A DNA stretch of 64,000 nt, taken from positions 2,510,097 through 2,574,096 of the forward strand of contig NC_011726.1 of NCBI RefSeq assembly GCF_000021805.1. Direction: 5' to 3'. Each line of letters begins with the position of its first letter. The stretch's first letter is position 1. This DNA is from Rippkaea orientalis PCC 8801. GTDB taxonomy: Bacteria > Cyanobacteriota > Cyanobacteriia > Cyanobacteriales > Microcystaceae. A program made the position numbers and the translations under genes. The notes beneath the pieces were generated by a model, which was not told the DNA's origin, made no database searches, and was given only the letters and a program-made list of their open reading frames with translations. Of this stretch, positions 1 to 11,879 are shown one piece after another.

Positions 1-323
1 ATACCGACACTAATACCTTGACTGTAAGCTTTTAATAGAGGAATCCTTTGGAAGATCGCCGTTAATCGTTCAGCTAGGGTTGCTCCGGCTATTGCACCAC
101 TGAGAATCCCAATCAGGGTAATCCCAATTTGTACGGTAGAGAGGAAGTTATTCGGGGCATTGATGAGATTTAGTACCGTTCTTGCCTGACGATTGCCTCG
201 ACTAGCCAGTTGTTCTAAACGGACTTTACGAGAGGAGACGATAGCCATCTCTGAACCAGAAAAGATCCCATTGGCGATAATCAGCAGAAGAATAAAAATA
301 ATTTCGGTGGCGATCGCAGACAT
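1..323 (-). CDS. Hemolysin/CNNM-family (DUF21-CBS-CorC type) membrane protein, N-terminal part; the C-terminus lies beyond the window start
   Basis: Reverse-strand ATG at 323-321. Translation MSAIATEIIFILLLIIANGIFSGSEMAIVSSRKVRLEQLASRGNRQ... has no stop codon before the window edge. This is a typical DUF21 N-terminus. The ORF is absent from the ORF track because it is truncated. Confidence 0.6.
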   Translation of the reverse strand, partial: MSAIATEIIFILLLIIANGIFSGSEMAIVSSRKVRLEQLASRGNRQARTVLNLINAPNNFLSTVQIGITLIGILSGAIAGATLAERLTAIFQRIPLLKAYSQGISVG

Positions 324-1584
324 TCTTGCTTTGTCAGAATTAACAATAATAGGCCTTATGCTAACTTGAACAGAAATATTTCGGGAAGTCCCCACCTAAA
401 ACTCTGATTTAGATGGGGCTTCCTGAAAAGTTCGGGTCTACAAGACTTATTATGCTAAATTCTTCTTTTAGTTCCTGCATAACTTGAAGGGATGTTCAGT
501 TAGGCTTATTTGATTTGGATGGTTTCTGTTGTTGCAACAGGAGAGTTGGAAAGGGTTTGAGTGGGATTAGTCAAAGTTTGTACTGCTCCGACAAAAAGAC
601 GTACCCAAACAGTAACGGTAGCAACAATAATTAACAGTCTGAGAGATTGATAATTCATAACAATACCCAACTCCCTGAAGAATAATCAACTTATCTCTAT
701 TCAAACAAGGAGTAAGCGTTTCTACCCTCACCACAATAGATGAAGATGCTTTCATCCCTTTGGGTGAAGGCTCGTTGTATAAATTAGGTCAGAAGAAAAT
801 CGATATTAGATCAATTTATAAGTTTTTTTTATATTACTTAGATTATTATTATTTATCATCCTCTCTCTTGTCATCTTGAATTTCAAATTTTATAATGAAA
901 GTAGCAAAACGATTGCTAAATTGCTCTTGGTTAAAAACCAATTGTATTAACCAAGTAGAATCAAGTTTTGCAACCACAAAGAAATGCTATTATTTTCAAA
1001 AAGTTATCGATGATAGCCATACTAGCTATTGGTAAGACTGACTTGATTTTGTCTTATTATAACTTGTTGTGCCTTGTTTGTTATCAATAAACGGGTACTG
1101 ATAACTTTTGACTAATCGATCCTATTGATCAAGATAATAGCGGCAAAAACCTGGTTTTTCAAAGCGATAAGTTTTTGAAGTGAGGCATAAATCCTCATAA
1201 GAAAAAGAAATTCTGTACGGGCTTAATATTATTAAGCCCCTACTAACTTGGTGATTTCTGACTTCATTAATTTCGTTTCACTCCTAGACACTCACTTTAA
1301 CCAAAATGATCATCACTCACTTATTTCTAATTAAATTATCTCTTAAAAAGAGTTATCATTTCCTTTTGAATTATCTTAGTTATTTTTTTATTATCTCTCA
1401 TTATCTTCAGAGGTGATCCTCACTCTGTTGCTTAATCTATCGTGATCAATCCTAGGGGCGATCGCTTATCTGCTTCCCTAACTTACAGATTATATCATGA
1501 GACACAAAAGATACCTTAAATTCAGGACAAATTTGAAGGACTGCTATACAATATATTATCGAACAAAAAAAAAGGAATCATATT

Positions 1585-3711
1585 TTGTTAGCAGCCCTTC
1601 ATCTGTTACCTTACCCCAAGCCATTAAATCGGTTTATTAGCTTAGTCTTGAGTAGCCTGATTGTTATCATTTTATTGACTTTTACCATGTCGAGTGTTGG
1701 TGCCAATCAAACCGAAATTTTATGGGATACTTGGGGCGTTCCTCATCTTTATGCTCAGGATACAAAAAGTTTATTTAAAGCCTTTGGATGGGCACAAACT
1801 AAGAGTCATGGTAATTTAATTTTAAAACTCTATGGTCAAGCTAGGGGGAAAGCTGCTGAATACTGGGGCATTAATTATTTAGAATCCGATCAATATGTTA
1901 AAACAATGGGTATTCCTGCTAGGGCGCAAGAATGGTATCAACAACAAAGTCCCGAAATGCGGGAATATTTAGATTATTTTGCCACAGGAATTAATGATTA
2001 TGTCGCTCAACATCCCGATGAAATTGACGACTCAGTTAAATTAGTTTTACCGATTACTCCTACTGATATTTTAGCCCATCTACAAAGGGTAATTCACTTC
2101 CATTTTGTCACCAATCCTCAATCCGTTTCTTCCTTACAAACTATAGCCCCCCAAGGGGGATCAAACGGGTGGGTCATTGCCCCGGAAAAATCGGCTAGTA
2201 ATCACTCTATTTTATTAGCCAATCCCCATTTACCTTGGTCAGATTTTTATCTCTGGTATGAAGCCCACTTAAACGCTCCTGGGGTTAATAGTTATGGTGC
2301 AGCTTTAGTAGGAATGCCTGTCTTAGCCATTGCTTTTAATGATCACTTAGGTTGGACTGTTACCCTTAATCCAATTGATGGCGCAGATATGTATCAACTA
2401 ACCCTAAAAGATCAAGGATATCTTTGGGATGGAGAGGTCAAAAACTTTGAAACAAAAACTGAAACGGTCAAAATTCGTCAAGCAAATGGGAGTTATACAG
2501 AACTACAATTCGGGGTTAAACGCTCCATTCATGGGATAATTATTGCCCAAGAAAAAAACAAAGCTTTTGCCTTAAGAGTCGTCGGTTTAGATCATCCCCA
2601 CGGATTAAAACAATTGTGGGAAATGGCAAAATCTACTAACTTAGAACAATTTGAAAAGGGGTTAAAACAGTTACAAATTCCTTTGTTTAATTTTCTTTAT
2701 GCTGACCAAAAAGGACAGATTTTTTATCTATTTAATGGCTTGATTCCTAAACGCCCTCAAGGAAACTGGAATGACTGGCAAAAAATTATCCCTGGAGATA
2801 CCTCAAAAACCCTTTGGACTGAGTATCATAACTATGAAACGTTACCTCGTTTAGTTAATCCGAAAACGGGATGGTTACAAAATACCAATGATCCCCCCTG
2901 GACGAGTACTTATCCCCCCATTCTAGAAGCCAAAGATTATCCCCCTTATCTCGCCCCACCCTCCTTAAGCTATGCACCCAATATTTTGCGATCGCAGCGT
3001 TCTATTACCCTCCTAAAAGATTCAAAAAAACTCAGTTTTGAAGACGTAATTAATCATAAATTCTCGTCTAGATTATTAATGGCTGATCGTCTTTTAGAGA
3101 TTCTTATTCCCACAGCCAAAGCATTAGCTAACCCTATTGGCATAGAAGCAGTTAAAGTCCTAGAAAAATGGGATCGACAAACCAATATAGACAGTCGTGG
3201 AGCAGTACTTTTTACTCTTTGGGCGTTAACCTTAGAATCAAAGGGCATTTTTTCCCGTCCTTGGAACCCCGAAAACCCCTTAGAAACCCCCGCCGGGTTA
3301 GCCGATATTAATACAGCTTTAGCGGTTTTAGAAGGGGTAGCAGCGCAAGTTGAACTACTTTATGGTTCGTTAGATATCCCTTGGGGAGAAGTGGTTAAAA
3401 TGCGCTTTGGGGATAAGAGTATTCCAGCGAGTGGGGGACCTGGAAAATTAGGAAGTTTTCGCGTTTTAAATATTCAAGCAACGGCAGATGAAAAGTTTCA
3501 AGTTGTCTTTGGAGATAGTTTTATTGCTGTTGTCGAATTTTCTGATCCAATTCGGGCTAACGTATTAAATGTGTATGGTAATTCTAATCAGCCTAATTCA
3601 CCCCATCGGGGCGATCAATTATCCTTATATGCTGAGGGAAAAATGCGTCCAGTTTGGCGAAGTAAAGAAGAGGTTAAGAATCATTTAATTTTGGAGGAAT
3701 TGATTAGATAA
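1585..3711 (+). CDS. Penicillin-amidase-family Ntn hydrolase, an acyl-homoserine-lactone acylase-like protein of the PvdQ/AiiC/QuiP type
   Basis: 708-aa ORF. The N-terminus is hydrophobic and signal-like. The TTG at 1585 is the track start; ATG 1687 is an alternative start. The beta-subunit nucleophile motif GGSNGWVIAPEKSASNHSILLANPHLPW matches the SN...LLANPHxPW signature of AHL acylases. Confidence 0.85.
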   Translation: MLAALHLLPYPKPLNRFISLVLSSLIVIILLTFTMSSVGANQTEILWDTWGVPHLYAQDTKSLFKAFGWAQTKSHGNLILKLYGQARGKAAEYWGINYLESDQYVKTMGIPARAQEWYQQQSPEMREYLDYFATGINDYVAQHPDEIDDSVKLVLPITPTDILAHLQRVIHFHFVTNPQSVSSLQTIAPQGGSNGWVIAPEKSASNHSILLANPHLPWSDFYLWYEAHLNAPGVNSYGAALVGMPVLAIAFNDHLGWTVTLNPIDGADMYQLTLKDQGYLWDGEVKNFETKTETVKIRQANGSYTELQFGVKRSIHGIIIAQEKNKAFALRVVGLDHPHGLKQLWEMAKSTNLEQFEKGLKQLQIPLFNFLYADQKGQIFYLFNGLIPKRPQGNWNDWQKIIPGDTSKTLWTEYHNYETLPRLVNPKTGWLQNTNDPPWTSTYPPILEAKDYPPYLAPPSLSYAPNILRSQRSITLLKDSKKLSFEDVINHKFSSRLLMADRLLEILIPTAKALANPIGIEAVKVLEKWDRQTNIDSRGAVLFTLWALTLESKGIFSRPWNPENPLETPAGLADINTALAVLEGVAAQVELLYGSLDIPWGEVVKMRFGDKSIPASGGPGKLGSFRVLNIQATADEKFQVVFGDSFIAVVEFSDPIRANVLNVYGNSNQPNSPHRGDQLSLYAEGKMRPVWRSKEEVKNHLILEELIR

Positions 3712-3884
3712 GCAACAATTATATTAATTCTCAAAATTGTATCAAAACGCTGCAACCTTTCTGCTGCCTATTCTCCAGTTTTCCTCGCTTATATCTCTTA
3801 AGATTCGTAACAATCGTGAACTACAGTCCAAGTTTGCACGGTATGATGGTTAAAAATTTTTAGGTAGCGGAGTCCTAGCTGGCT

Positions 3885-4898
3885 ATGAAACGCCTAGTTG
3901 TTTGCTGTGACGGCACTTGGCAAGACCTCGAAAGTTCCTATCCTAGCAATGTGGTAAAATTAACTGAAGCGATCAAACCGATTGCTAGTGATGGAACACC
4001 ACAAATTGTCTTTTACGATGCGGGTATTGGAACAGAAAGTCAAAAGATTTCAGGAGGGGCTGCCGGAGTAGGCATCGACAGAAATATTCAAGATGGCTAT
4101 CGTTTCCTATGTCTGAACTACGTTGAAGGCGATGAAATCTATCTGTTTGGCTTTAGTCGTGGTGCCTATACCGTTAGGAGTTTAGCGGGAATGATCCACT
4201 GTTCAGGACTGCTCAAACGTTCCTACATAACCGATGCAGCAGAAGCCTACGAACTGTACCGAAACCGAGATATTAAACCCTCCGATCCCGAAGCGGTTAA
4301 GTACCGTAAAGTTCACGGTGATCGCGTCCCGATTACCCTGGTGGGGTGTTTTGATACGGTTGGAGCTTTAGGCCTCCCAGTCGTGCCACTGTTTCGGATG
4401 TTTAAGCCTTGGGTACACCGTCGCTATCAATTCTATGATACCACATTAAATCCAGATGTGCAGAATGCCCTGCACGCTGTGGCGATCGATGAGATTCGCG
4501 AAGTGTTTGATGTCACCCCCATGACTCCAAACCCCAAAGCTGAGAATCAACGGTTAATTCAAAAGTGGTTTCCAGGGGATCATGGGTGCGTTGGGGGAGG
4601 AACAGAAGCCTATCGCGGGCTGTCGGACGCGGCTTTAACATGGATGATTGATTCGATTGGTGACTTAGGATTAGGACTAGACTTTGATCTTAGTGCCATT
4701 CGCACGGGAATTAAGCTCGATTGTGAGTGTAACTTTAGCAATAAACCAGGGTTCTATCGATTAGCCGGAATCAAACTGCGTGAAGTAGGAGAAGCCCTTG
4801 AAGATCTTCATGACACAACCATTGAACGGTTGAAAAATCGTCCCGACTATCGACCCCCCAATCTAGAGAAAGTCATCCCCAAAATCGTGCAAAAGTAA
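3885..4898 (+). CDS. DUF2235 alpha/beta-hydrolase protein (Tle1 phospholipase-like fold)
   Basis: Hallmark N-terminal CCDGTW motif and the nucleophile-elbow-like GFSRGA motif. 337 aa. Confidence 0.8.
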   Translation: MKRLVVCCDGTWQDLESSYPSNVVKLTEAIKPIASDGTPQIVFYDAGIGTESQKISGGAAGVGIDRNIQDGYRFLCLNYVEGDEIYLFGFSRGAYTVRSLAGMIHCSGLLKRSYITDAAEAYELYRNRDIKPSDPEAVKYRKVHGDRVPITLVGCFDTVGALGLPVVPLFRMFKPWVHRRYQFYDTTLNPDVQNALHAVAIDEIREVFDVTPMTPNPKAENQRLIQKWFPGDHGCVGGGTEAYRGLSDAALTWMIDSIGDLGLGLDFDLSAIRTGIKLDCECNFSNKPGFYRLAGIKLREVGEALEDLHDTTIERLKNRPDYRPPNLEKVIPKIVQK

Positions 4899-4933
4899 GG
4901 TTTCTTAGTCCACGCTTTCTTCAAAAAAAGGAA

Positions 4934-6673
4934 TTGACTCCAATGTTCAAAGGCCTAAAAATAGCCTTACAGGCTGACACGGGCAGATGGTTTACTCGTT
5001 GTAATAACTGTCAACAAACCATAGGCAACAATCCTGATACCGTCACTGTTCATGTTGAAGGTTCTGTCTCGGAGCATCCCTACGCCCAATTTGAAGTCGT
5101 TGACGTAGGGAATGGGAAAATTGCTCTCAAAGCAGACACAGGGAAGTATGTAGGACGGTGTAATGGTTGCATCGTTGGGGGAGCCTATCCCGACTTTTTA
5201 ACCATTCATGTTGATGATCCTTCGATGCCATGGGCACAATTTACCCCCGAACGCTTAGCCAATGGCAAATATGCCTTTAAAGCCGATACGGGTAAGTATT
5301 TTGGTCGCTGTAACGGCTGTTCCCCCACCTCTGCCTATCCTGATACCGTCGCGGTTCACGTTGACAACCCTCATAATTCCCCGTGGGCTCAGTGGACAGT
5401 GAGTTATGTCCCGTTTTCCTATTTGGAGAGATACGACGCTATTCCGGCGGATAATGTTGCCGAAAAAGCGAAATTAGTCGGACGAGCCATGGCCACTGAC
5501 TCGCGTAACTTCTTTAAGGAATTACGCGCGAATCGTCCCATTTTTATCACCCCTAAATTCGTTCTGGTAACGTTATTTCCTGACGTACAAGAAGTTTTCT
5601 CCCGTCCCGAAGTGTTCTCCGTGAGATTGTATGCCCCGAAAATGGACCCCAATCATGGTCCGGCAATGCTCTCTAGAGATAATACAGTCTATAACTGGCG
5701 AGAAAAATCCATCATGAAAACCATGTTGGACTGGGAAGACTTACCAAGAATCAAACAAGCGGCCGGAGAAGTAGCCAAAGCTGCGTTAGATAAGTTTGCT
5801 CCCACCAAAAAAATCGAAACCGTCAATGAGTTGGCTAAATGGGTTTTAGTCAGGATGAGTGGGGATTATTATGGCTTTCCCGGTCCTGACCGAGAAACGA
5901 TGTATCGCTGGTCAAGTGCTACCCAAAGTGGGATGTTGAGAAATTTGGCCAATGATCCCCAAATCCATGAAGCCTCCGTGCAAGCCGGGAAAGAAATGCG
6001 GGATTATCTGACCCAACTGTTGCAACAGAAAAAAGCCAATAATACCCCATCTACTGCCCCTAAAGACATTTTCACCCGATTAGTTCAAGCAAATTTGACT
6101 AGCGACATTCCCTTTGACGAGAGCCGAATCCTCACCAATATGGCACTGTTGCTCATTTCTACCCTAGATACCACGGCTCAAGCGATTGTTCAGTCTCTAG
6201 AACAACTGTTGCGTCGTCCCGATATTCTGCCTAAAGCGGTAGCAGCAGCTAAGGCCAATGATGATGTAACCTTCGCTAAGTATGTTTGGGAAGCCTTGCG
6301 CTTTAACCCTGTCAGTCCCGCACTGCCTCGCTTTTGTGAGTCAGACTATACTGTGGCTGCTGGAACCTCCAGAGCGACCCGTATCCCTGCGAATAGCTTG
6401 GTTTTAGTCAGTCTCGGTTCGGCGATGATGGATGGCGCGATCGTTCAAAATCCTGAGCAATTTTCCATCGAACGGCCAAAACACAACTATATGCACTATG
6501 GTTATGGCGATCATACCTGTTTGGGTGAACATATTGGCAATGTGGTTGTTTCTGAAGTCATTAAACAAGTTTTACTTCGTCCAGGGGTAAGGTTGATTCC
6601 TGGGGATGAAGGAAAACTACAAGCTCAACCGAATGCCATTCTTAAAAGTTTTGTCATTGCCTATGACGGATAA
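4934..6673 (+). CDS. Fusion protein: N-terminal triple-repeat beta-trefoil (fascin-like) domain plus C-terminal cytochrome P450 domain
   Basis: Three repeats of about 48 aa (KADTGKY.GRCNGC...PDT..VHVD.P...WAQF). The C-terminal 410 aa carry P450 motifs: I-helix STLDTTAQ, K-helix EALR (ExxR), meander PEQFSIER, and heme loop YGYGDHTCLGEHIG (FGxGxHxCxG). Confidence 0.8.
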   Translation: MTPMFKGLKIALQADTGRWFTRCNNCQQTIGNNPDTVTVHVEGSVSEHPYAQFEVVDVGNGKIALKADTGKYVGRCNGCIVGGAYPDFLTIHVDDPSMPWAQFTPERLANGKYAFKADTGKYFGRCNGCSPTSAYPDTVAVHVDNPHNSPWAQWTVSYVPFSYLERYDAIPADNVAEKAKLVGRAMATDSRNFFKELRANRPIFITPKFVLVTLFPDVQEVFSRPEVFSVRLYAPKMDPNHGPAMLSRDNTVYNWREKSIMKTMLDWEDLPRIKQAAGEVAKAALDKFAPTKKIETVNELAKWVLVRMSGDYYGFPGPDRETMYRWSSATQSGMLRNLANDPQIHEASVQAGKEMRDYLTQLLQQKKANNTPSTAPKDIFTRLVQANLTSDIPFDESRILTNMALLLISTLDTTAQAIVQSLEQLLRRPDILPKAVAAAKANDDVTFAKYVWEALRFNPVSPALPRFCESDYTVAAGTSRATRIPANSLVLVSLGSAMMDGAIVQNPEQFSIERPKHNYMHYGYGDHTCLGEHIGNVVVSEVIKQVLLRPGVRLIPGDEGKLQAQPNAILKSFVIAYDG

Positions 6674-6848
6674 ATGAAGTCACAAAGGGTAGGGGTTTAA
6701 TATTATTGAACTCCTACGACTGCTGACGCTTACTCATGCGTAGCAAACCTAAACGCGATTTCTTATTAGATTTTAGGGTTGAATTTTTTAACCCTTGTCT
6801 AAACAATCAGTCAAAGTATCAAGATCAATTCAGGAGGATTGATTCATT

Positions 6849-8855
6849 ATGTCTACCAAAACAAAGACAATTTTCGATGAAATAAAAGCTGCTTTGGTAT
6901 TGAAAGTCATCGATAGCCCTTTGGGACGGAAATTAATCGAAGAAAAAGCGGAGAAACAAGTCTCTAAAACCCAAGAGGCTATCACCAAACCCATCGAACA
7001 GTTGAATAAAGCAACGGGTCAATTACTCTTTAGTGATACCAATAAGCCTTTACATAACATCGAATTAGAGGTGTGGGACAGAGATGTCGGGACACCAAGT
7101 GATTATTTAGGGAAGGGAGTAACGGATCAAAATGGTCGCTTTGAAATTTACTACGATCCTGAAAAAGCCGGGTTTAAAGATGCGCCGGATTTAGAATTAA
7201 GGGTCATCGATAATCGTGTTACCTTTGATAGCGACAATCAACCTGTTTATACTAATCGCATCGCCTATATTATCAAAGGTGGGGACAATGTAACCCAAAA
7301 AACCTATGATTTCGGGACGTTAACGGTTCCTTACTGGCCTTACGATCCTAACAGTCCCTTTGCGCGGATCTTCATGCCAAATCCTGAAGAAACCCCCGAT
7401 GATTACTCCGTAGGACGCAAATTTCAAGCCTATGCCTCGGCTAATGTTCTCACCCCCATTAAAGCCAAGCATACTATCGCTAATACCCTAAACCCGAAAG
7501 AACCTAGTTTGACCCAAATTCAAGCAGATTATCCCCCCAATTTAACCATCAATTTAGATCGGGAAAAACCCGGATATACCCGCAGTGATGAGTATTTTGT
7601 TTTGCGGGTTCTCAATGGCATGAATCCTTGTTTGCTCAAACGCAGTAAAAGCGATCCCAATCAGTTTAAGATGAGTTTTATTTGGGATAACTACGAAAAA
7701 GATACGGAACACGATCTTCATAATGTAGAGGCCTATTTTGTCTTAAAAGATGGCAAACTTTTCCCGACAATGATCACCATTCAAAGTCGCTATCCAGATT
7801 CTTTGGCTCCCCATTCTCCTCTGAAAGATCGGGAAGTGTATACTCCCAATGATGGGGAAAAATGGTTACAAGCTAAACGGATTTTCCGGACGGCTGCTTT
7901 ATTTGACGGAGAAGCGATCGAGCATTATGCTAAGGCTCATGTGCAGATGGAACAGTATGCGGTAGCTTGTTTCCGTAATCTACGCAAAAACCCCATCCGT
8001 TTGATGTTAACTCCCCATTTAAAGAGCATTATTAATATTAATCGCCGTGGGGATGATTTACTGGTAGAACCGAACCTTGGCTTATTTGTGACTAACGGTC
8101 CGTTAACCTATCCAGGGTTCTTGCAAATGTGTACGGAAGTAGTGGCAACCTACGACTGGAAAGACTGGCAACCCCGTCAACCTATCTGCGACGATCATAA
8201 GTACGCTAAGGCAGCGAATCTCTACTGGCAGATTTTAACCGAATATGTTGACGCATTTTTTGCGAAGCATCAACAAGCGATCGCGGATGAATGGGTAGAA
8301 ATTCGCCGTTTTTCTGAGGATTTAGTCGAACATAGTATGCCCTATCAACCCATTGAGGGCATTATGGCGAATACCGATAGTGATTACGAATGGTATGATA
8401 CAGGGGAATTGGATAAGCCTGATCTTCCCAGAGCGACGTTTAATGGCAAGACTAAGGTAATTCGACCGATTACTAACTCTAATCAACCAAGTGCCACGGA
8501 TATCGACAATTTAAAACAATGTTGCCGTCATATCATCTTCCATACGACTTTGTGGCACACTTGGGTTAACGATTCTCAGTCCGATGAGGGGGGAGAATTG
8601 GCTTATAATTCCCTAGCGTTACGCAATGGTAGTTTTGGTAGTGAAACTGATCCTAACATCGCCCCTGATCCCATAGAAGCAACCAATCAGGTTTATATCT
8701 TCAGTGTCTTAAATGGCATTAAGTACGGCTTATTGGTGAAAAATGAGGATGATGATGTGCCTGAAGAGTTAAGAACGGCTTTGCTCAATCGCAAGGATCA
8801 ATTTGCTGAATTAGGCATCGATATTGGCAATATTCGCACTTTAATTAATATTTAG
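6849..8855 (+). CDS. Iron lipoxygenase (prokaryotic LOX without a PLAT domain)
   Basis: 668 aa. Contains HYAKAH (His-x4-His) and HTWVND (His-x3-Asn) iron-ligand motifs with LOX spacing. The protein ends in a C-terminal Ile (..TLINI), the expected fifth iron ligand. Confidence 0.85.
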   Translation: MSTKTKTIFDEIKAALVLKVIDSPLGRKLIEEKAEKQVSKTQEAITKPIEQLNKATGQLLFSDTNKPLHNIELEVWDRDVGTPSDYLGKGVTDQNGRFEIYYDPEKAGFKDAPDLELRVIDNRVTFDSDNQPVYTNRIAYIIKGGDNVTQKTYDFGTLTVPYWPYDPNSPFARIFMPNPEETPDDYSVGRKFQAYASANVLTPIKAKHTIANTLNPKEPSLTQIQADYPPNLTINLDREKPGYTRSDEYFVLRVLNGMNPCLLKRSKSDPNQFKMSFIWDNYEKDTEHDLHNVEAYFVLKDGKLFPTMITIQSRYPDSLAPHSPLKDREVYTPNDGEKWLQAKRIFRTAALFDGEAIEHYAKAHVQMEQYAVACFRNLRKNPIRLMLTPHLKSIININRRGDDLLVEPNLGLFVTNGPLTYPGFLQMCTEVVATYDWKDWQPRQPICDDHKYAKAANLYWQILTEYVDAFFAKHQQAIADEWVEIRRFSEDLVEHSMPYQPIEGIMANTDSDYEWYDTGELDKPDLPRATFNGKTKVIRPITNSNQPSATDIDNLKQCCRHIIFHTTLWHTWVNDSQSDEGGELAYNSLALRNGSFGSETDPNIAPDPIEATNQVYIFSVLNGIKYGLLVKNEDDDVPEELRTALLNRKDQFAELGIDIGNIRTLINI

Positions 8856-8865
8856 TGCATCAGTG

Positions 8866-8890
8866 GGGTGGGGCGTTCCCACCCTATTTT
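8866..8890 (+). terminator. Rho-independent terminator candidate after the lipoxygenase gene
   Basis: Stem gggtggg/cccaccc (7 bp) with loop gcgtt, followed by tatttt. Confidence 0.5.
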
Positions 8891-8950
8891 AATATCTCAC
8901 ACAACTAATTTTGCGTGATACTGGTTAGCTAGATAGAAAATTTCGATAAT

Positions 8951-9217
8951 ATGGAGATAGAATGGAACAACGATAAAGCTGCCTCAAATGTGATCAAACA
9001 TAACATTGATTTTGAGGATGCGAAAAACATTTTTTTAGCTCCAAACCGCCTTGAAAGAGAAGATAAACGTAATTATAATGAAACTAGAATACAAGTTATT
9101 GGTATAGTGAATCAAGTAGTTTTATTTGTTGTCTATCCCAAAAGAGAAAACAGATATCGTATTATTTCAGCACGAAGAGCCAATAAAAATGAACGACAAC
9201 AATATTACCAGAGTTAA
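8951..9217 (+). CDS. brnT: BrnT-family (DUF497) toxin
   Basis: 88 aa. Motifs EWNNDKAASNVIKHNIDFEDA... and VVYPKRENRYRIISARRANKNER match the BrnT consensus. Confidence 0.7.
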   Translation: MEIEWNNDKAASNVIKHNIDFEDAKNIFLAPNRLEREDKRNYNETRIQVIGIVNQVVLFVVYPKRENRYRIISARRANKNERQQYYQS

Positions 9218-9380
9218 ACTCGATCCTAAAAATCCTACTCAGGGTAAGACAAATTGGGTTAAAGTTAAAGCAATGACTGAAGAAGAAATTGAACAAGCAG
9301 CCAAAAACGATTCAGATTGTTTACCCTTGTCTCAAAAAGAATTAAATGAATTTCGCCGTATAATGGAGAAGTCAGATTAG
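9189..9380 (+). CDS. brnA: BrnA-type antitoxin (BrnA_antitoxin/DUF4415-like)
   Basis: ATG 9189 overlaps the end of brnT. Sequence ..TNWVKVKAMTEEEIEQAAKNDSDCLPLSQKELNEFRR matches the BrnA antitoxin family. The track ORF 9126 is an upstream extension in the same frame. Confidence 0.65.
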   Translation: MNDNNITRVKLDPKNPTQGKTNWVKVKAMTEEEIEQAAKNDSDCLPLSQKELNEFRRIMEKSD

Positions 9381-9386
9381 TCAGAG

Positions 9387-11879
9387 ATGATTGCTTCTAA
9401 TTTTATTGTTACTGAACTGTTTCATCAAAGTGGAGAAGCAGGAGAAAGGGTTGTTTGGGAAGCGATACAAAGGGTATTTTATGGGCGAGAATGTCTGGCT
9501 TATTGGCGTTATCCTCTGTTTTTAGGAAAGGGAAAATTTCGCAAAGAACCTGATATTTTAATCGCCGATAGGGAACTGGGTTTAATTATTATTGAAGTTA
9601 AGTCTATTAAAATTAATCAGATTATTAGTATTCAAGGACATCGTTGGCAATATAAAAATTTTTATACTAAATTTGGCAATCCCTATCAACAAGCAGAAAA
9701 TCAGTTATTTGCTTTGTTAGATTATGCTAAAACCGAACCAAGTTTAGATAATCAAGTAACAGGTAGGGTAATGGTTGCTTTACCTTTAATTACTCAACAA
9801 CAATGGCAAGAAAAAGAGTTTGATAAACTTCCTAGTAATCCTCCAATTTTATTTAAAAATTCTCTAGACTCATCGGCTTTATTGTTTGAATTGATTGAAA
9901 AAACAACGCCTGTTCTTAAAAGAGAAAAATTGAGCAATCAACAATGGGAATTACTCACTTCTATTCTATCAGGAACACCTGTTTTAAGTCAACCCATTCA
10001 TCGGGTATTGAGTGGTTCTCAAAGTCGTGGCAAGGTTTTACAAGAATTGCGATCGCAGGTAAGTCAATTGGATTTACAACAGGAAAAAATTGCCAAACAA
10101 ATACCACCAGGGTGTCAAAGAATTAGGGGAATAGCGGGGTCAGGAAAAACGGTTTTACTGTGTCAAAAAGTGGCAATTATGCACCTTAAATATCCGCAGT
10201 GGAAAATTGCCTTTGTCTTTTTTTCGCGTAGTCTTTATGAGGAAATTACCACCCACATTGATCGCTGGATTCGCTATTTTAGTCATAATCAACAAGGCTA
10301 TGATCCCAATAATCGTAACTTACGGGTTTTTCATGCTTGGGGTTCAGAGAAAAAGTTGGGGTTTTATCGATTTGTTTCTCAAGTCTGTGGAAAAACGCCT
10401 TTAAGTGTTAATCAAACAACTCGACAAAAACCTAATGAAGCATTAGGAGAAGTTTGTTATGATTTATTGAATAAAACAGGCATTCCTCAGATTTTTGATG
10501 CTATTTTGATTGATGAAGGACAAGACTTAATGGTTGATCATTGGCACTATCAAGGTAAACAACCTTTTTATTGGTTAGCCTATCAATCTTTACGTCCAGT
10601 TAATTCTATCTATCCTGAACAAAAACGGTTAATTTGGGCTTATGATGAAGTCCAAAGTTTAGACAGTTTAAAAATGCCAACAGCTAGGGAAATGTTTGGA
10701 GAAGAATTAGGTCATTTAGTCACCGGAAAGCATTTTAATGGGATTAATAAAACTGAGGTAATGTGCCGTTGTTATCGAACGCCTCATCCGATTATTATTG
10801 CTGCTCACGCGATGGTAATGGGATGGTTACGTCCTGAAGGAATGTTAACGGGAATGAGGCATAAAGAAGAATGGCAAGCATTAGGCTATGAAGTTACGGG
10901 AGAGTTGATTTCAGGCAATAATATTATTATCAAAAGACCGAAAGAAAATTCTCCTAACCCTTTGCCTTATTTATGGAAAGATGATTTAATTAAGTTTGAG
11001 ATTTATTCATCAAGACAACAGGAAATGAGTGCTTTATATCGCCATCTTAAACACAATTTACGCCAGGATGGTTTACGTCCGAGTAAAGAGATTTTAGTGA
11101 TTGTTTTAGGAGAATTTTTTGAGGCAGCAAATTTACAAAAAAATATTGCTAATTTTTTAATCAGACAAGGAATTGATATTTTTATTCCTGGGACAAAAGA
11201 TTGTAATATTCTAACTCATGAAAGTGAGGAAAATTGTGATCAATTTTGGTGTGCTGGTGGGGTAACAATTTCGCGTATTTATCAAGCGAAGGGACAGGAA
11301 GCTGATCAAGTTTATATTATTGGATTAGATCACATTGCGGAAGAGGAAAGTAATTTATCGTTACGCAATCAATTATTTATTGCTTTGACGCGATCGCGGG
11401 GGTGGGTTAATATTAGTGGTATTGGCAATTACCCTCTTTATCAAGAATTACAAAATGTCTTAAACAATGGCGATACTTTTTCCGTTACGTTTGCTGAACC
11501 TCAACAACGAGAAATTATCGGAACCGATGAAGGAGAATTATTAAAAAGCTATAGTTTAGGGAGAAGAAATTTTGAACAAGCAGCGTTACAAAATGCACAA
11601 TTAAATAGAGTTAATTTAAGCGATATTAATCTCATTGGAGCAAATTTATCGGGAGCAAGATTTAACTATACTAATCTTAATCGTGCTAAATTAATAGCAG
11701 CGAATTTACAAGGGGCTGATTTAACAGGAGCCAGTTTAATTAAAGCTAAATTGATGGGGGCTAATTTAAAAGGAGCAAATTTACAAGAGGCTGATTTAAC
11801 ACAAGCAGATTTAAGTAATGTAGACTTAACAGGGGCATTAGTCGAACCAGAACAATTAGAAAAGGCTATTTTTGAATAA
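9387..11879 (+). CDS. NERD domain + SF1 (UvrD-like) helicase + C-terminal pentapeptide-repeat fusion protein
   Basis: N-terminal NERD signature EPDILIADRELGLIIIEVKS. Walker A GIAGSGKT and Walker B LIDEGQD. The C-terminal approximately 130 aa are A(N/D)LxGA pentapeptide repeats. Confidence 0.8.
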   Translation: MIASNFIVTELFHQSGEAGERVVWEAIQRVFYGRECLAYWRYPLFLGKGKFRKEPDILIADRELGLIIIEVKSIKINQIISIQGHRWQYKNFYTKFGNPYQQAENQLFALLDYAKTEPSLDNQVTGRVMVALPLITQQQWQEKEFDKLPSNPPILFKNSLDSSALLFELIEKTTPVLKREKLSNQQWELLTSILSGTPVLSQPIHRVLSGSQSRGKVLQELRSQVSQLDLQQEKIAKQIPPGCQRIRGIAGSGKTVLLCQKVAIMHLKYPQWKIAFVFFSRSLYEEITTHIDRWIRYFSHNQQGYDPNNRNLRVFHAWGSEKKLGFYRFVSQVCGKTPLSVNQTTRQKPNEALGEVCYDLLNKTGIPQIFDAILIDEGQDLMVDHWHYQGKQPFYWLAYQSLRPVNSIYPEQKRLIWAYDEVQSLDSLKMPTAREMFGEELGHLVTGKHFNGINKTEVMCRCYRTPHPIIIAAHAMVMGWLRPEGMLTGMRHKEEWQALGYEVTGELISGNNIIIKRPKENSPNPLPYLWKDDLIKFEIYSSRQQEMSALYRHLKHNLRQDGLRPSKEILVIVLGEFFEAANLQKNIANFLIRQGIDIFIPGTKDCNILTHESEENCDQFWCAGGVTISRIYQAKGQEADQVYIIGLDHIAEEESNLSLRNQLFIALTRSRGWVNISGIGNYPLYQELQNVLNNGDTFSVTFAEPQQREIIGTDEGELLKSYSLGRRNFEQAALQNAQLNRVNLSDINLIGANLSGARFNYTNLNRAKLIAANLQGADLTGASLIKAKLMGANLKGANLQEADLTQADLSNVDLTGALVEPEQLEKAIFE

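Follow-up and report, generated by a model that had tools for sequence, protein, structure and literature searches.

The window analysed here is a stretch of 64,000 nucleotides (64 kb) of the cyanobacterium Rippkaea orientalis PCC 8801 (contig NC_011726.1, positions 2,510,097 to 2,574,096 of the forward strand), whose left part carries genes for an acylase, a lipase-like hydrolase, a cytochrome P450 and a lipoxygenase (LOX). Four open reading frames (ORFs) were called on the + strand, at 1585-3711, 3885-4898, 4934-6673 and 6849-8855, with intergenic gaps of 173, 35 and 175 nt. With a start of the P450 gene at the ATG at 4943, the second gap would measure 44 nt; this start is more likely than the TTG at 4934 since the database protein that is 100% identical to this P450 (P0121, 'cytochrome P450 [Rippkaea orientalis PCC 8801]') has 576 amino acids (aa). 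In Pfam searches, the first ORF matches Penicil_amidase (PF01804, E 5e-135), the second T6SS_Tle1-like_cat/DUF2235 (PF09994, E 6.5e-80), the third P450 (PF00067, E 3.7e-20), with about 160 aa before the P450 domain that give a weak FRG1 match, and the fourth Lipoxygenase (PF00305, E 1e-7). An original prediction, made from the sequence alone, had placed four co-directional genes at these coordinates with these gaps, had called an acylase-like hydrolase, a DUF2235 hydrolase, a beta-trefoil::P450 and a lipoxygenase, and had read them as one four-gene oxylipin-type cluster. The layout and the domain calls agree with our ORF coordinates, with the Pfam E-values and with the trefoil model described below. 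As for the cluster itself, our analysis makes it likely that the second, third and fourth genes form a three-gene oxylipin module.

The last gene of the run (6849-8855, + strand) encodes an iron lipoxygenase that is identical at all its residues (668/668) to PDB 5EK8, and it is thus CspLOX1 of Cyanothece sp. PCC 8801. Its translation contains the iron ligands as H-x4-H (EHYAKAH), H-x3-N (HTWVN) and a C-terminal Ile (...LINI); among 20 LOX homologues, H359, H364, H570 and N667 are invariant and N574 is nearly invariant. The original prediction was therefore right to recognise an iron lipoxygenase from the domain and the ligands, but the protein is not anonymous: it was already known and crystallised, and belongs to a small number of bacterial lipoxygenases for which crystal structures exist. 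PMC5437038 describes CspLOX1 as a linoleate 9R-lipoxygenase, and according to a review (PMC6164985) its alpha-helical extension has a part in drawing substrate straight from membranes. In the open-access literature, we found no paper that discusses the genomic setting of CspLOX1, the enzymes that act with it or its end products. Some distant homologues of CspLOX1 have other architectures. Two of them (P0073 and P0076) are fused to catalase domains, and others with about 40% identity (P0075, P0082, P0085 and others) are fused to cyclic-nucleotide-binding domains (PF00027) in proteins of ~990 aa, which suggests that these may be lipoxygenases regulated by cyclic nucleotides (cNMP).

The second gene (3885-4898, + strand) encodes a DUF2235/Tle1-like alpha/beta hydrolase of 337 aa that covers positions 1-286 of the 287 positions of the PF09994 profile. 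Ser91, in the motif GFSRG, and His233 are invariant among 17 orthologues and Asp157 is nearly invariant; the full-length PF09994 match, the GxSxG motif and the conserved Asp and His bear out the Tle1-fold alpha/beta hydrolase that had been proposed. The translation shows no signal peptide, and no solved structure related to the protein by sequence was found. On these sequence features, the hydrolase is a probable lipase encoded by the first gene of the conserved module and would plausibly act as an acyl-ester hydrolase on membrane lipids, before or after oxygenation. It has the DUF2235 catalytic domain and the GxSxG motif in common with Tle1 of Pseudomonas aeruginosa, a phospholipase effector of the type VI secretion system (T6SS). 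In contrast to this effector, it is essentially a bare catalytic domain and has no T6SS or immunity gene context. We considered and rejected such an effector function: the 337 aa hold the catalytic domain only, the neighbours encode a P450, a LOX and an acylase, and orthologues lie in dioxygenase operons. The DUF2235 family is very large in cyanobacteria, with more than 5,700 matches at E <= 1e-20.

The third gene encodes, in a single ORF of the + strand, an N-terminal beta-trefoil domain (4943-5428, FRG1/fascin-like, identified with AlphaFold and Foldseek) followed by a P450 catalytic domain (5429-6673, PF00067). The AlphaFold model of the N-terminal 162 aa has a predicted local distance difference test (pLDDT) score of 92.9 and shows 12 strands arranged as a three-fold pseudo-symmetric beta-trefoil. 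Its top Foldseek matches are FRG1, Tpp80Aa1 (Tpp80 lectin domain), CBM92, Symfoil designs and fascin, with a Foldseek probability of 1.00 for FRG1, Symfoil, CBM92 and fascin, and this confirms the beta-trefoil::P450 architecture. The domain consists of three repeats of ~50 aa with an invariant CxxC in each lobe, and this three-fold repeat is detectable even in DNA (family D1). It is fused to the window-type P450 only in some genomes (L014, L022, L069 and L070 among the loci that we collected). Elsewhere (proteins P0224-P0231 and P0176-P0211), it is fused to multicopper oxidases in other cyanobacteria, with 60-72% identity, and tandem-trefoil proteins with this domain occur in myxobacteria and oomycetes. 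The trefoil has the appearance of a mobile unit added to oxidative enzymes.

The best PDB relatives of the P450 are ordinary class I, ferredoxin-dependent bacterial P450s, for instance CYP143 and CYP142. Its Cys loop (YGYGDHTCLG; YGYGDHTCLGEHIG) has the ordinary length of the bacterial F/YGxGxHxCxG motif, as in 30 members of its family, and the nine-residue insertion of CYP74-type Cys loops is absent from the window P450 and from these 30 members. Furthermore, the I-helix reads L-D-T-T in the window protein and E-T-T/A-S-Q-A-I-V-Q in most of the wider family, so that the acid-alcohol pair is kept; E-G-T is found in just one cyanobacterial subclade. With an ordinary Cys loop and a retained acid-alcohol pair, a CYP74-like P450 was rejected on motifs. 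The analogy with CYP74 that had been drawn from the position of the P450 upstream of the LOX fails at sequence level, on the Cys loop, the I-helix and the CYP143/CYP142 relatives.

The grouping of these three genes is not restricted to the window. We fetched 68 genomic loci around LOX homologues, added loci from the P450 and hydrolase sides and mapped the partner proteins onto them by tblastn; the orthologue set comprises the 31 loci besides the window whose LOX shares at least 55% of its residues with CspLOX1. The hydrolase gene stands directly upstream of the LOX module, in the same direction, in 16/31 loci, and a window-type P450 lies upstream of the LOX in 12 of the 31. A haem-enzyme gene adjoins the LOX as a window-type P450 in these 12 loci, as another P450 in two and as a catalase-related gene in two. 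The synteny with other cyanobacteria that the original prediction had suggested looking for thus exists for both the hydrolase and the P450. The complete order hydrolase-P450-LOX occurs in two species of Crocosphaera, in Cyanothece BG0011, Okeania and Dolichospermum and in three Nostoc genomes (CHAB 5844, UHCC 0702 and N. punctiforme FACHB-252). All-against-all clustering of the ORFs revealed no other gene family common to more than six loci, the flanks being otherwise unrelated.

Other parts of the module are optional. An NTF2-like (DUF6841) gene lies between the hydrolase and P450 genes or between the P450 and LOX genes in five of the 31 loci (L003, L004, L005, L013 and L070), and NTF2-like or SnoaL domains are fused to members of the window P450 family elsewhere (P0158, P0206). 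Besides this NTF2-like protein, the module may include elsewhere a membrane protein (DUF1304), a second P450, a secreted protein of 442 aa or a Lipase_3 protein. No gene for an NTF2-like, DUF1304, 442-aa, haem dioxygenase (DOX), catalase-related or Lipase_3 protein is encoded within the 64-kb window.

Moreover, some slots of the module are filled by unrelated genes. In Floridaenema evergladense (L021), whose LOX is 80% identical to CspLOX1, the order is Tle1 / 344-aa catalase-related / LOX. The 344-aa protein matches the catalase-related gene of the dioxygenase operon of Nostoc PCC 7107 (E 1e-47) and weakly matches true catalases around the distal histidine. Locus L020 has a catalase-related gene then the LOX gene, and L032 has Tle1 / different P450 / LOX; a different P450 occupies the slot in Anabaena 4-3, and both P450s are found in Cyanothece BG0011. 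The lipase slot varies likewise: the DUF2235 gene is missing in Aphanothece sacrum, where a class 3 lipase (Lipase_3) gene abuts the LOX gene, and in Pseudanabaena the LOX gene is followed by Lipase_3.

Reciprocal sampling led back to dioxygenase-type genes. From the P450 side, a dioxygenase-type gene is adjacent or fused in 7/7 contexts on record, the partner being a LOX, a cyclooxygenase-like An_peroxidase, the same in a P450::An_peroxidase fusion, or a RoxA-like protein. In Actinocorallia, an An_peroxidase gene whose product is 48% identical to the cyanobacterial DOX lies 17 nt downstream of the P450 gene, and the two are adjacent again in another assembly. In L074 (447-3386), one ORF of 979 aa joins an N-terminal P450 of this family to a C-terminal An_peroxidase dioxygenase-like domain, a fusion found on one 3.9-kb contig of a metagenome-assembled genome (MAG) only. 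The P450 family also lies beside genes of RoxA-like dihaem cytochromes c (PF21419) in two unrelated lineages, on a Pyrinomonadaceae contig (L072 5131-8395) and in an Azospirillum MAG (L079 1-2986); RoxA-like proteins are relatives of rubber oxygenase. From the hydrolase side, 4/4 orthologues (68-73% identity) head a fatty-acid dioxygenase operon, which is DUF2235 / An_peroxidase / catalase-related in Nostoc PCC 7107, Cylindrospermum stagnale and Microcoleus vaginatus and DUF2235 / P450 / DUF1304 / LOX in Nostoc punctiforme FACHB-252. Hence, the DUF2235 family heads both LOX-based and DOX-based clusters, and all four pairings of a LOX or a haem dioxygenase with a P450 or a catalase-related protein occur. 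These four pairings and the common head gene are hard to explain other than by a shared pathway.

The module is a mosaic and is probably mobile by horizontal transfer. Genes of IS605 OrfB/TnpB type were seen inside or beside orthologous clusters (L009 4337-5311, L014 5343-6860 and L069 1865-3055), and in Okeania an IS605-type gene sits inside the cluster, between the P450 and LOX genes; these positions fit mobility of the cluster. Both kinds of cyanobacterial oxylipin system are united in a Coleofasciculaceae MAG (L026 8142-15469), where genes for a P450, a DUF1304 protein, a LOX, an An_peroxidase dioxygenase and a catalase-related protein form one co-directional run. Extra LOX genes stand in tandem with the CspLOX1 orthologue in L007 (8774-15332), L013 (12910-14721) and L016 (12134-13918), one locus having three LOX genes in a row and others a classical LOX of ~600 aa downstream. 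In loci without a window-type P450, a conserved secreted protein of ~442 aa is encoded directly downstream of the LOX gene (L002 12144-13472, L006 12038-13369, L012 4329-5705 and L032 12124-13392). Searches of Pfam, NCBIfam and the PDB gave no match to this protein. One of its motifs, RLTHRHGVF, recalls the distal Thr-His of catalase-related hydroperoxide enzymes; a catalase-related identity was not established, the BLASTP E-value being 0.27 and the hhalign probability 4%.

Altogether, there is good support for an oxylipin module of lipase, dioxygenase and haem partner, and in the many cyanobacteria where it recurs it probably makes oxidised fatty acids. In the pathway that we propose, the cytoplasmic DUF2235 hydrolase would be a (phospho/galacto)lipase that frees linoleate or alpha-linolenate from membrane lipids, or else would release acyl chains that are already oxidised. 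CspLOX1 would provide the 9R-hydroperoxide, a step that others have shown experimentally. The P450 would then convert the hydro(pero)xy fatty acid into an epoxy alcohol, a diol, an allene oxide or a chain-cleavage product, or would hydroxylate or epoxidise it, and would thereby fill the role that catalase-related haem proteins have in sister cyanobacterial clusters. The catalase-related family includes described hydroperoxide-converting partners of cyanobacterial dioxygenases. The context favours the LOX product as the substrate of the P450, and the sequence leaves the chemistry undecided: the enzyme may be a classical monooxygenase that hydroxylates or epoxidises this product by means of cellular ferredoxin or, alternatively, may use the hydroperoxide itself as oxygen donor. 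The three genes would presumably be transcribed together. On the right, the module ends, as had been predicted, with a terminator-like hairpin after the LOX gene (folded at 8862-8888, predicted at 8863-8882, + strand; -18.5 kcal/mol, z -3.6), and UAUUUU comes next.

Several observations weigh against this pathway. By its features (E/D-T-T I-helix, normal Cys loop, CYP143/142-like), the P450 resembles common class I enzymes that activate O2, and no ferredoxin or reductase gene is adjacent to its gene, so that the case for a hydroperoxide-converting role is drawn entirely from context. Within this context, the RoxA-like neighbours are, to our knowledge, not known as fatty-acid dioxygenases. Nine of the 31 LOX loci, mostly from Coleofasciculus, show none of the partner genes, although for L001, which is among these nine, the DNA upstream is too short for a judgement. 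The elevated GC content at third codon positions (GC3) that the three genes have in common (0.41-0.45) speaks for their belonging together, but the excess is modest, about 1.3-1.7 standard deviations over the window mean (0.32, standard deviation 0.07). Finally, the LOX gene may be transcribed separately, because the 175-nt spacer between the P450 and LOX genes contains a promoter-like match and a palindromic hairpin (6689-6717, + strand; 13-bp stem, -20.2 kcal/mol, z -4.5) that lies 16 nt past the stop codon of the P450 gene and might serve as a transcript boundary or as an element for processing or stabilisation.

Other explanations of the locus were weighed against the three-gene module, beginning with the pathway of four genes, in which the acylase would, for example, free fatty acids from N-acyl compounds for the LOX. 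The acylase gene (1585-3711, + strand) is co-directional with the hydrolase gene and 173 nt from it, with no terminator-like site predicted in the gap, and PvdQ and N-acyl-homoserine lactone (AHL) acylases release fatty acids from N-acyl substrates. The protein (708 aa) matches PF01804 over its full length and has an autoprocessing site, G/SNGW, at residue 193, where the PDB beta-chain alignments begin (GGSNGW). The 'PvdQ-type' acylase of the original prediction is therefore a member of the Ntn-hydrolase acylase superfamily but not of the PvdQ type: it scores 228 bits against the NCBIfam PvdQ equivalog NF051460, for which the cut-off is 950, and its closest PDB relatives are glutaryl-7-aminocephalosporanic acid (glutaryl-7-ACA, cephalosporin) acylases (E 1e-178, versus E 1e-55 for PvdQ) rather than long-chain acyl acylases. 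Moreover, the acylase gene is absent within 10 kb of the LOX gene in all 31 other orthologous loci and from every other locus fetched, and genes upstream of the hydrolase vary by genome, encoding a transposase, PsaF, HtrA, a sigma factor, PspA, CtaA/CtaB or UbiD. Its GC3 is 0.30, below that of the other three genes, and its N-terminus is signal-like, which implies a location in the periplasm, whereas the hydrolase, the P450 and the LOX have no signal sequence. A pathway including the acylase is thus highly improbable. The hydrolase, P450 and LOX of the predicted four-gene cluster are conserved together; the acylase is an unrelated periplasmic enzyme, a strain-specific chance neighbour outside the module.

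The three conserved genes could also be functionally independent and travel together merely because they lie in a variable, mobile region. The region is of atypical composition and has island-like features, with a BrnT toxin gene and a NERD/helicase gene just downstream; the phylogenetic distribution of the CspLOX1 homologues is patchy, and IS605-type transposase genes accompany orthologous clusters, as noted above for L009, L014 and L069. However, order and orientation persist across distant genera while the flanks change, slots are refilled by non-orthologous genes (catalase-related for P450, Lipase_3 for Tle1), both the P450 family and the hydrolase family are, independently of each other, found with another fatty-acid dioxygenase that is unrelated to the first, and domain fusions exist, all of which makes mere co-travelling very unlikely. 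A further explanation keeps the enzymes and changes their purpose: rather than making signalling oxylipins, they would form a membrane-peroxidation or defence device triggered by damage or attack, by analogy with the wound-activated lipase/LOX cascades of diatoms. The Pfam description of Tle1 as a family of antibacterial phospholipase toxins points in this direction, as do the toxin-antitoxin and NERD-helicase genes of the neighbourhood and the uptake of substrate from membranes reported for CspLOX1 in the review cited above (PMC6164985). We consider this role unlikely, since the 337-aa hydrolase is a bare catalytic domain with no T6SS, immunity or secretion-signal features within the window, and a conserved tailoring haem enzyme, often with an NTF2-like protein, suggests a defined product. 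This explanation bears on the physiological role, and the biochemical pathway could be the same under it.

The three-gene oxylipin module resembles known LOX and DOX systems in outline and differs from them by its class I-type trefoil P450 and its DUF2235 first gene. For instance, Brash et al. reportedly described in 2014 a gene pair of Nostoc punctiforme that encodes a linoleate 10S-dioxygenase and a catalase-related 10S-hydroperoxide lyase. In that operon too, a cyanobacterial fatty-acid dioxygenase is joined by a haem enzyme, a protein of its own, for the conversion of the hydroperoxide; by contrast, the window dioxygenase is a non-haem iron LOX, and its haem partner is a P450 encoded upstream, not downstream. 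The loci L075-L077 (An_peroxidase then catalase-related) match this pair in gene content and begin with an orthologue (68-71% identity) of the window hydrolase. The N. punctiforme pair of 10S-dioxygenase and catalase-related hydroperoxide lyase is cited in PMC13049297.

A LOX can also be physically coupled to the haem enzyme that transforms its hydroperoxide, and beside close orthologues of CspLOX1 (L020, L021) the P450 slot holds a catalase-related gene that stands by itself. Such catalase-related::LOX fusions are known as the allene oxide synthase (AOS)-LOX of corals and as fusion proteins of Nostoc PCC 7120 and Acaryochloris. In the window, by contrast, two genes encode the LOX and its haem partner, and a thiolate-ligated P450 takes the place of the catalase-fold protein. 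Furthermore, fatty-acid dioxygenases are teamed with P450s in plants (LOX with CYP74) and in fungal dioxygenase-P450 fusions, which include the linoleate diol synthases/Ppo, DOX-AOS and DOX-epoxy alcohol synthase (DOX-EAS). Unlike the plant CYP74 and fungal DOX-CYP enzymes, the window P450 keeps the I-helix acid-alcohol pair and a standard Cys loop and is class I-like, and the order of the L074 fusion, P450 then DOX, is the reverse of the fungal order.

The central enzyme of the module is already known; novelty seems to lie in the cluster, in the systematic partnership of this P450 family with dioxygenases and in the part played by DUF2235. In the open-access literature, no paper was found that describes the cluster or that connects lipoxygenases with DUF2235 or with this P450 family, in agreement with the view of the original prediction that the arrangement is undescribed, and for DUF2235 in cyanobacteria only a general toxin survey was found. 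We tentatively extend the interpretation beyond the window: the P450 could represent an undescribed bacterial family that is a dedicated companion of three oxygenase types unrelated to one another (LOX, cyclooxygenase-like haem dioxygenase and RoxA-like dihaem enzymes), a prokaryotic counterpart of CYP74 and of the fungal DOX-CYP enzymes built on a class I scaffold, and the small cytoplasmic DUF2235 protein could be the lipase so far lacking from cyanobacterial oxylipin pathways, supplying them with substrate. If true, a P450 family newly known to act on fatty-acid hydroperoxides would be of interest to biocatalysis. The analysis also gives a probable role to the very large cyanobacterial DUF2235 family and links LOX-based and cyclooxygenase-like DOX-based oxylipin systems of cyanobacteria by a common first gene and interchangeable haem partners. 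The conserved neighbours of CspLOX1 are testable candidates, namely a lipase that supplies or releases the substrate, a P450 that tailors the hydroperoxide, and accessory NTF2-like and DUF1304 proteins.

The borders of the locus show some further features. The 'long leader' that had been noted before the first gene (396-1584) is an AT-rich stretch of 1.19 kb whose longest ORF is at most 62 aa, and an Rfam scan of window positions 1-10000 gave no match at E <= 1. The palindrome of the P450-LOX spacer is a 29-nt element (GTAGGGGYTTAATATTATTRA...) that is present twice and forms a strong hairpin. The other copy (1215-1243) lies about 370 nt 5' of the acylase gene, and these are the only copies within the 64-kb window, where 0.01 matches are expected by chance. 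The ribosome-binding site of the LOX gene, AGGAGG, is at 6833-6838. Directly after the LOX terminator, a gene on the + strand (8951-9217) encodes a BrnT ribonuclease toxin (PF04365, E 1.4e-26), and a 63-aa ORF that overlaps it (9189-9380, + strand) occupies the position of an antitoxin, without a significant Pfam match. The genes downstream of the module have a GC3 of 0.22-0.24. The next ORF (9387-11879, + strand) encodes a protein of 830 aa with a NERD (nuclease-related) domain, the C-terminal domain of a UvrD-like helicase and pentapeptide repeats at its C-terminus, a defence-like architecture beside the toxin gene.

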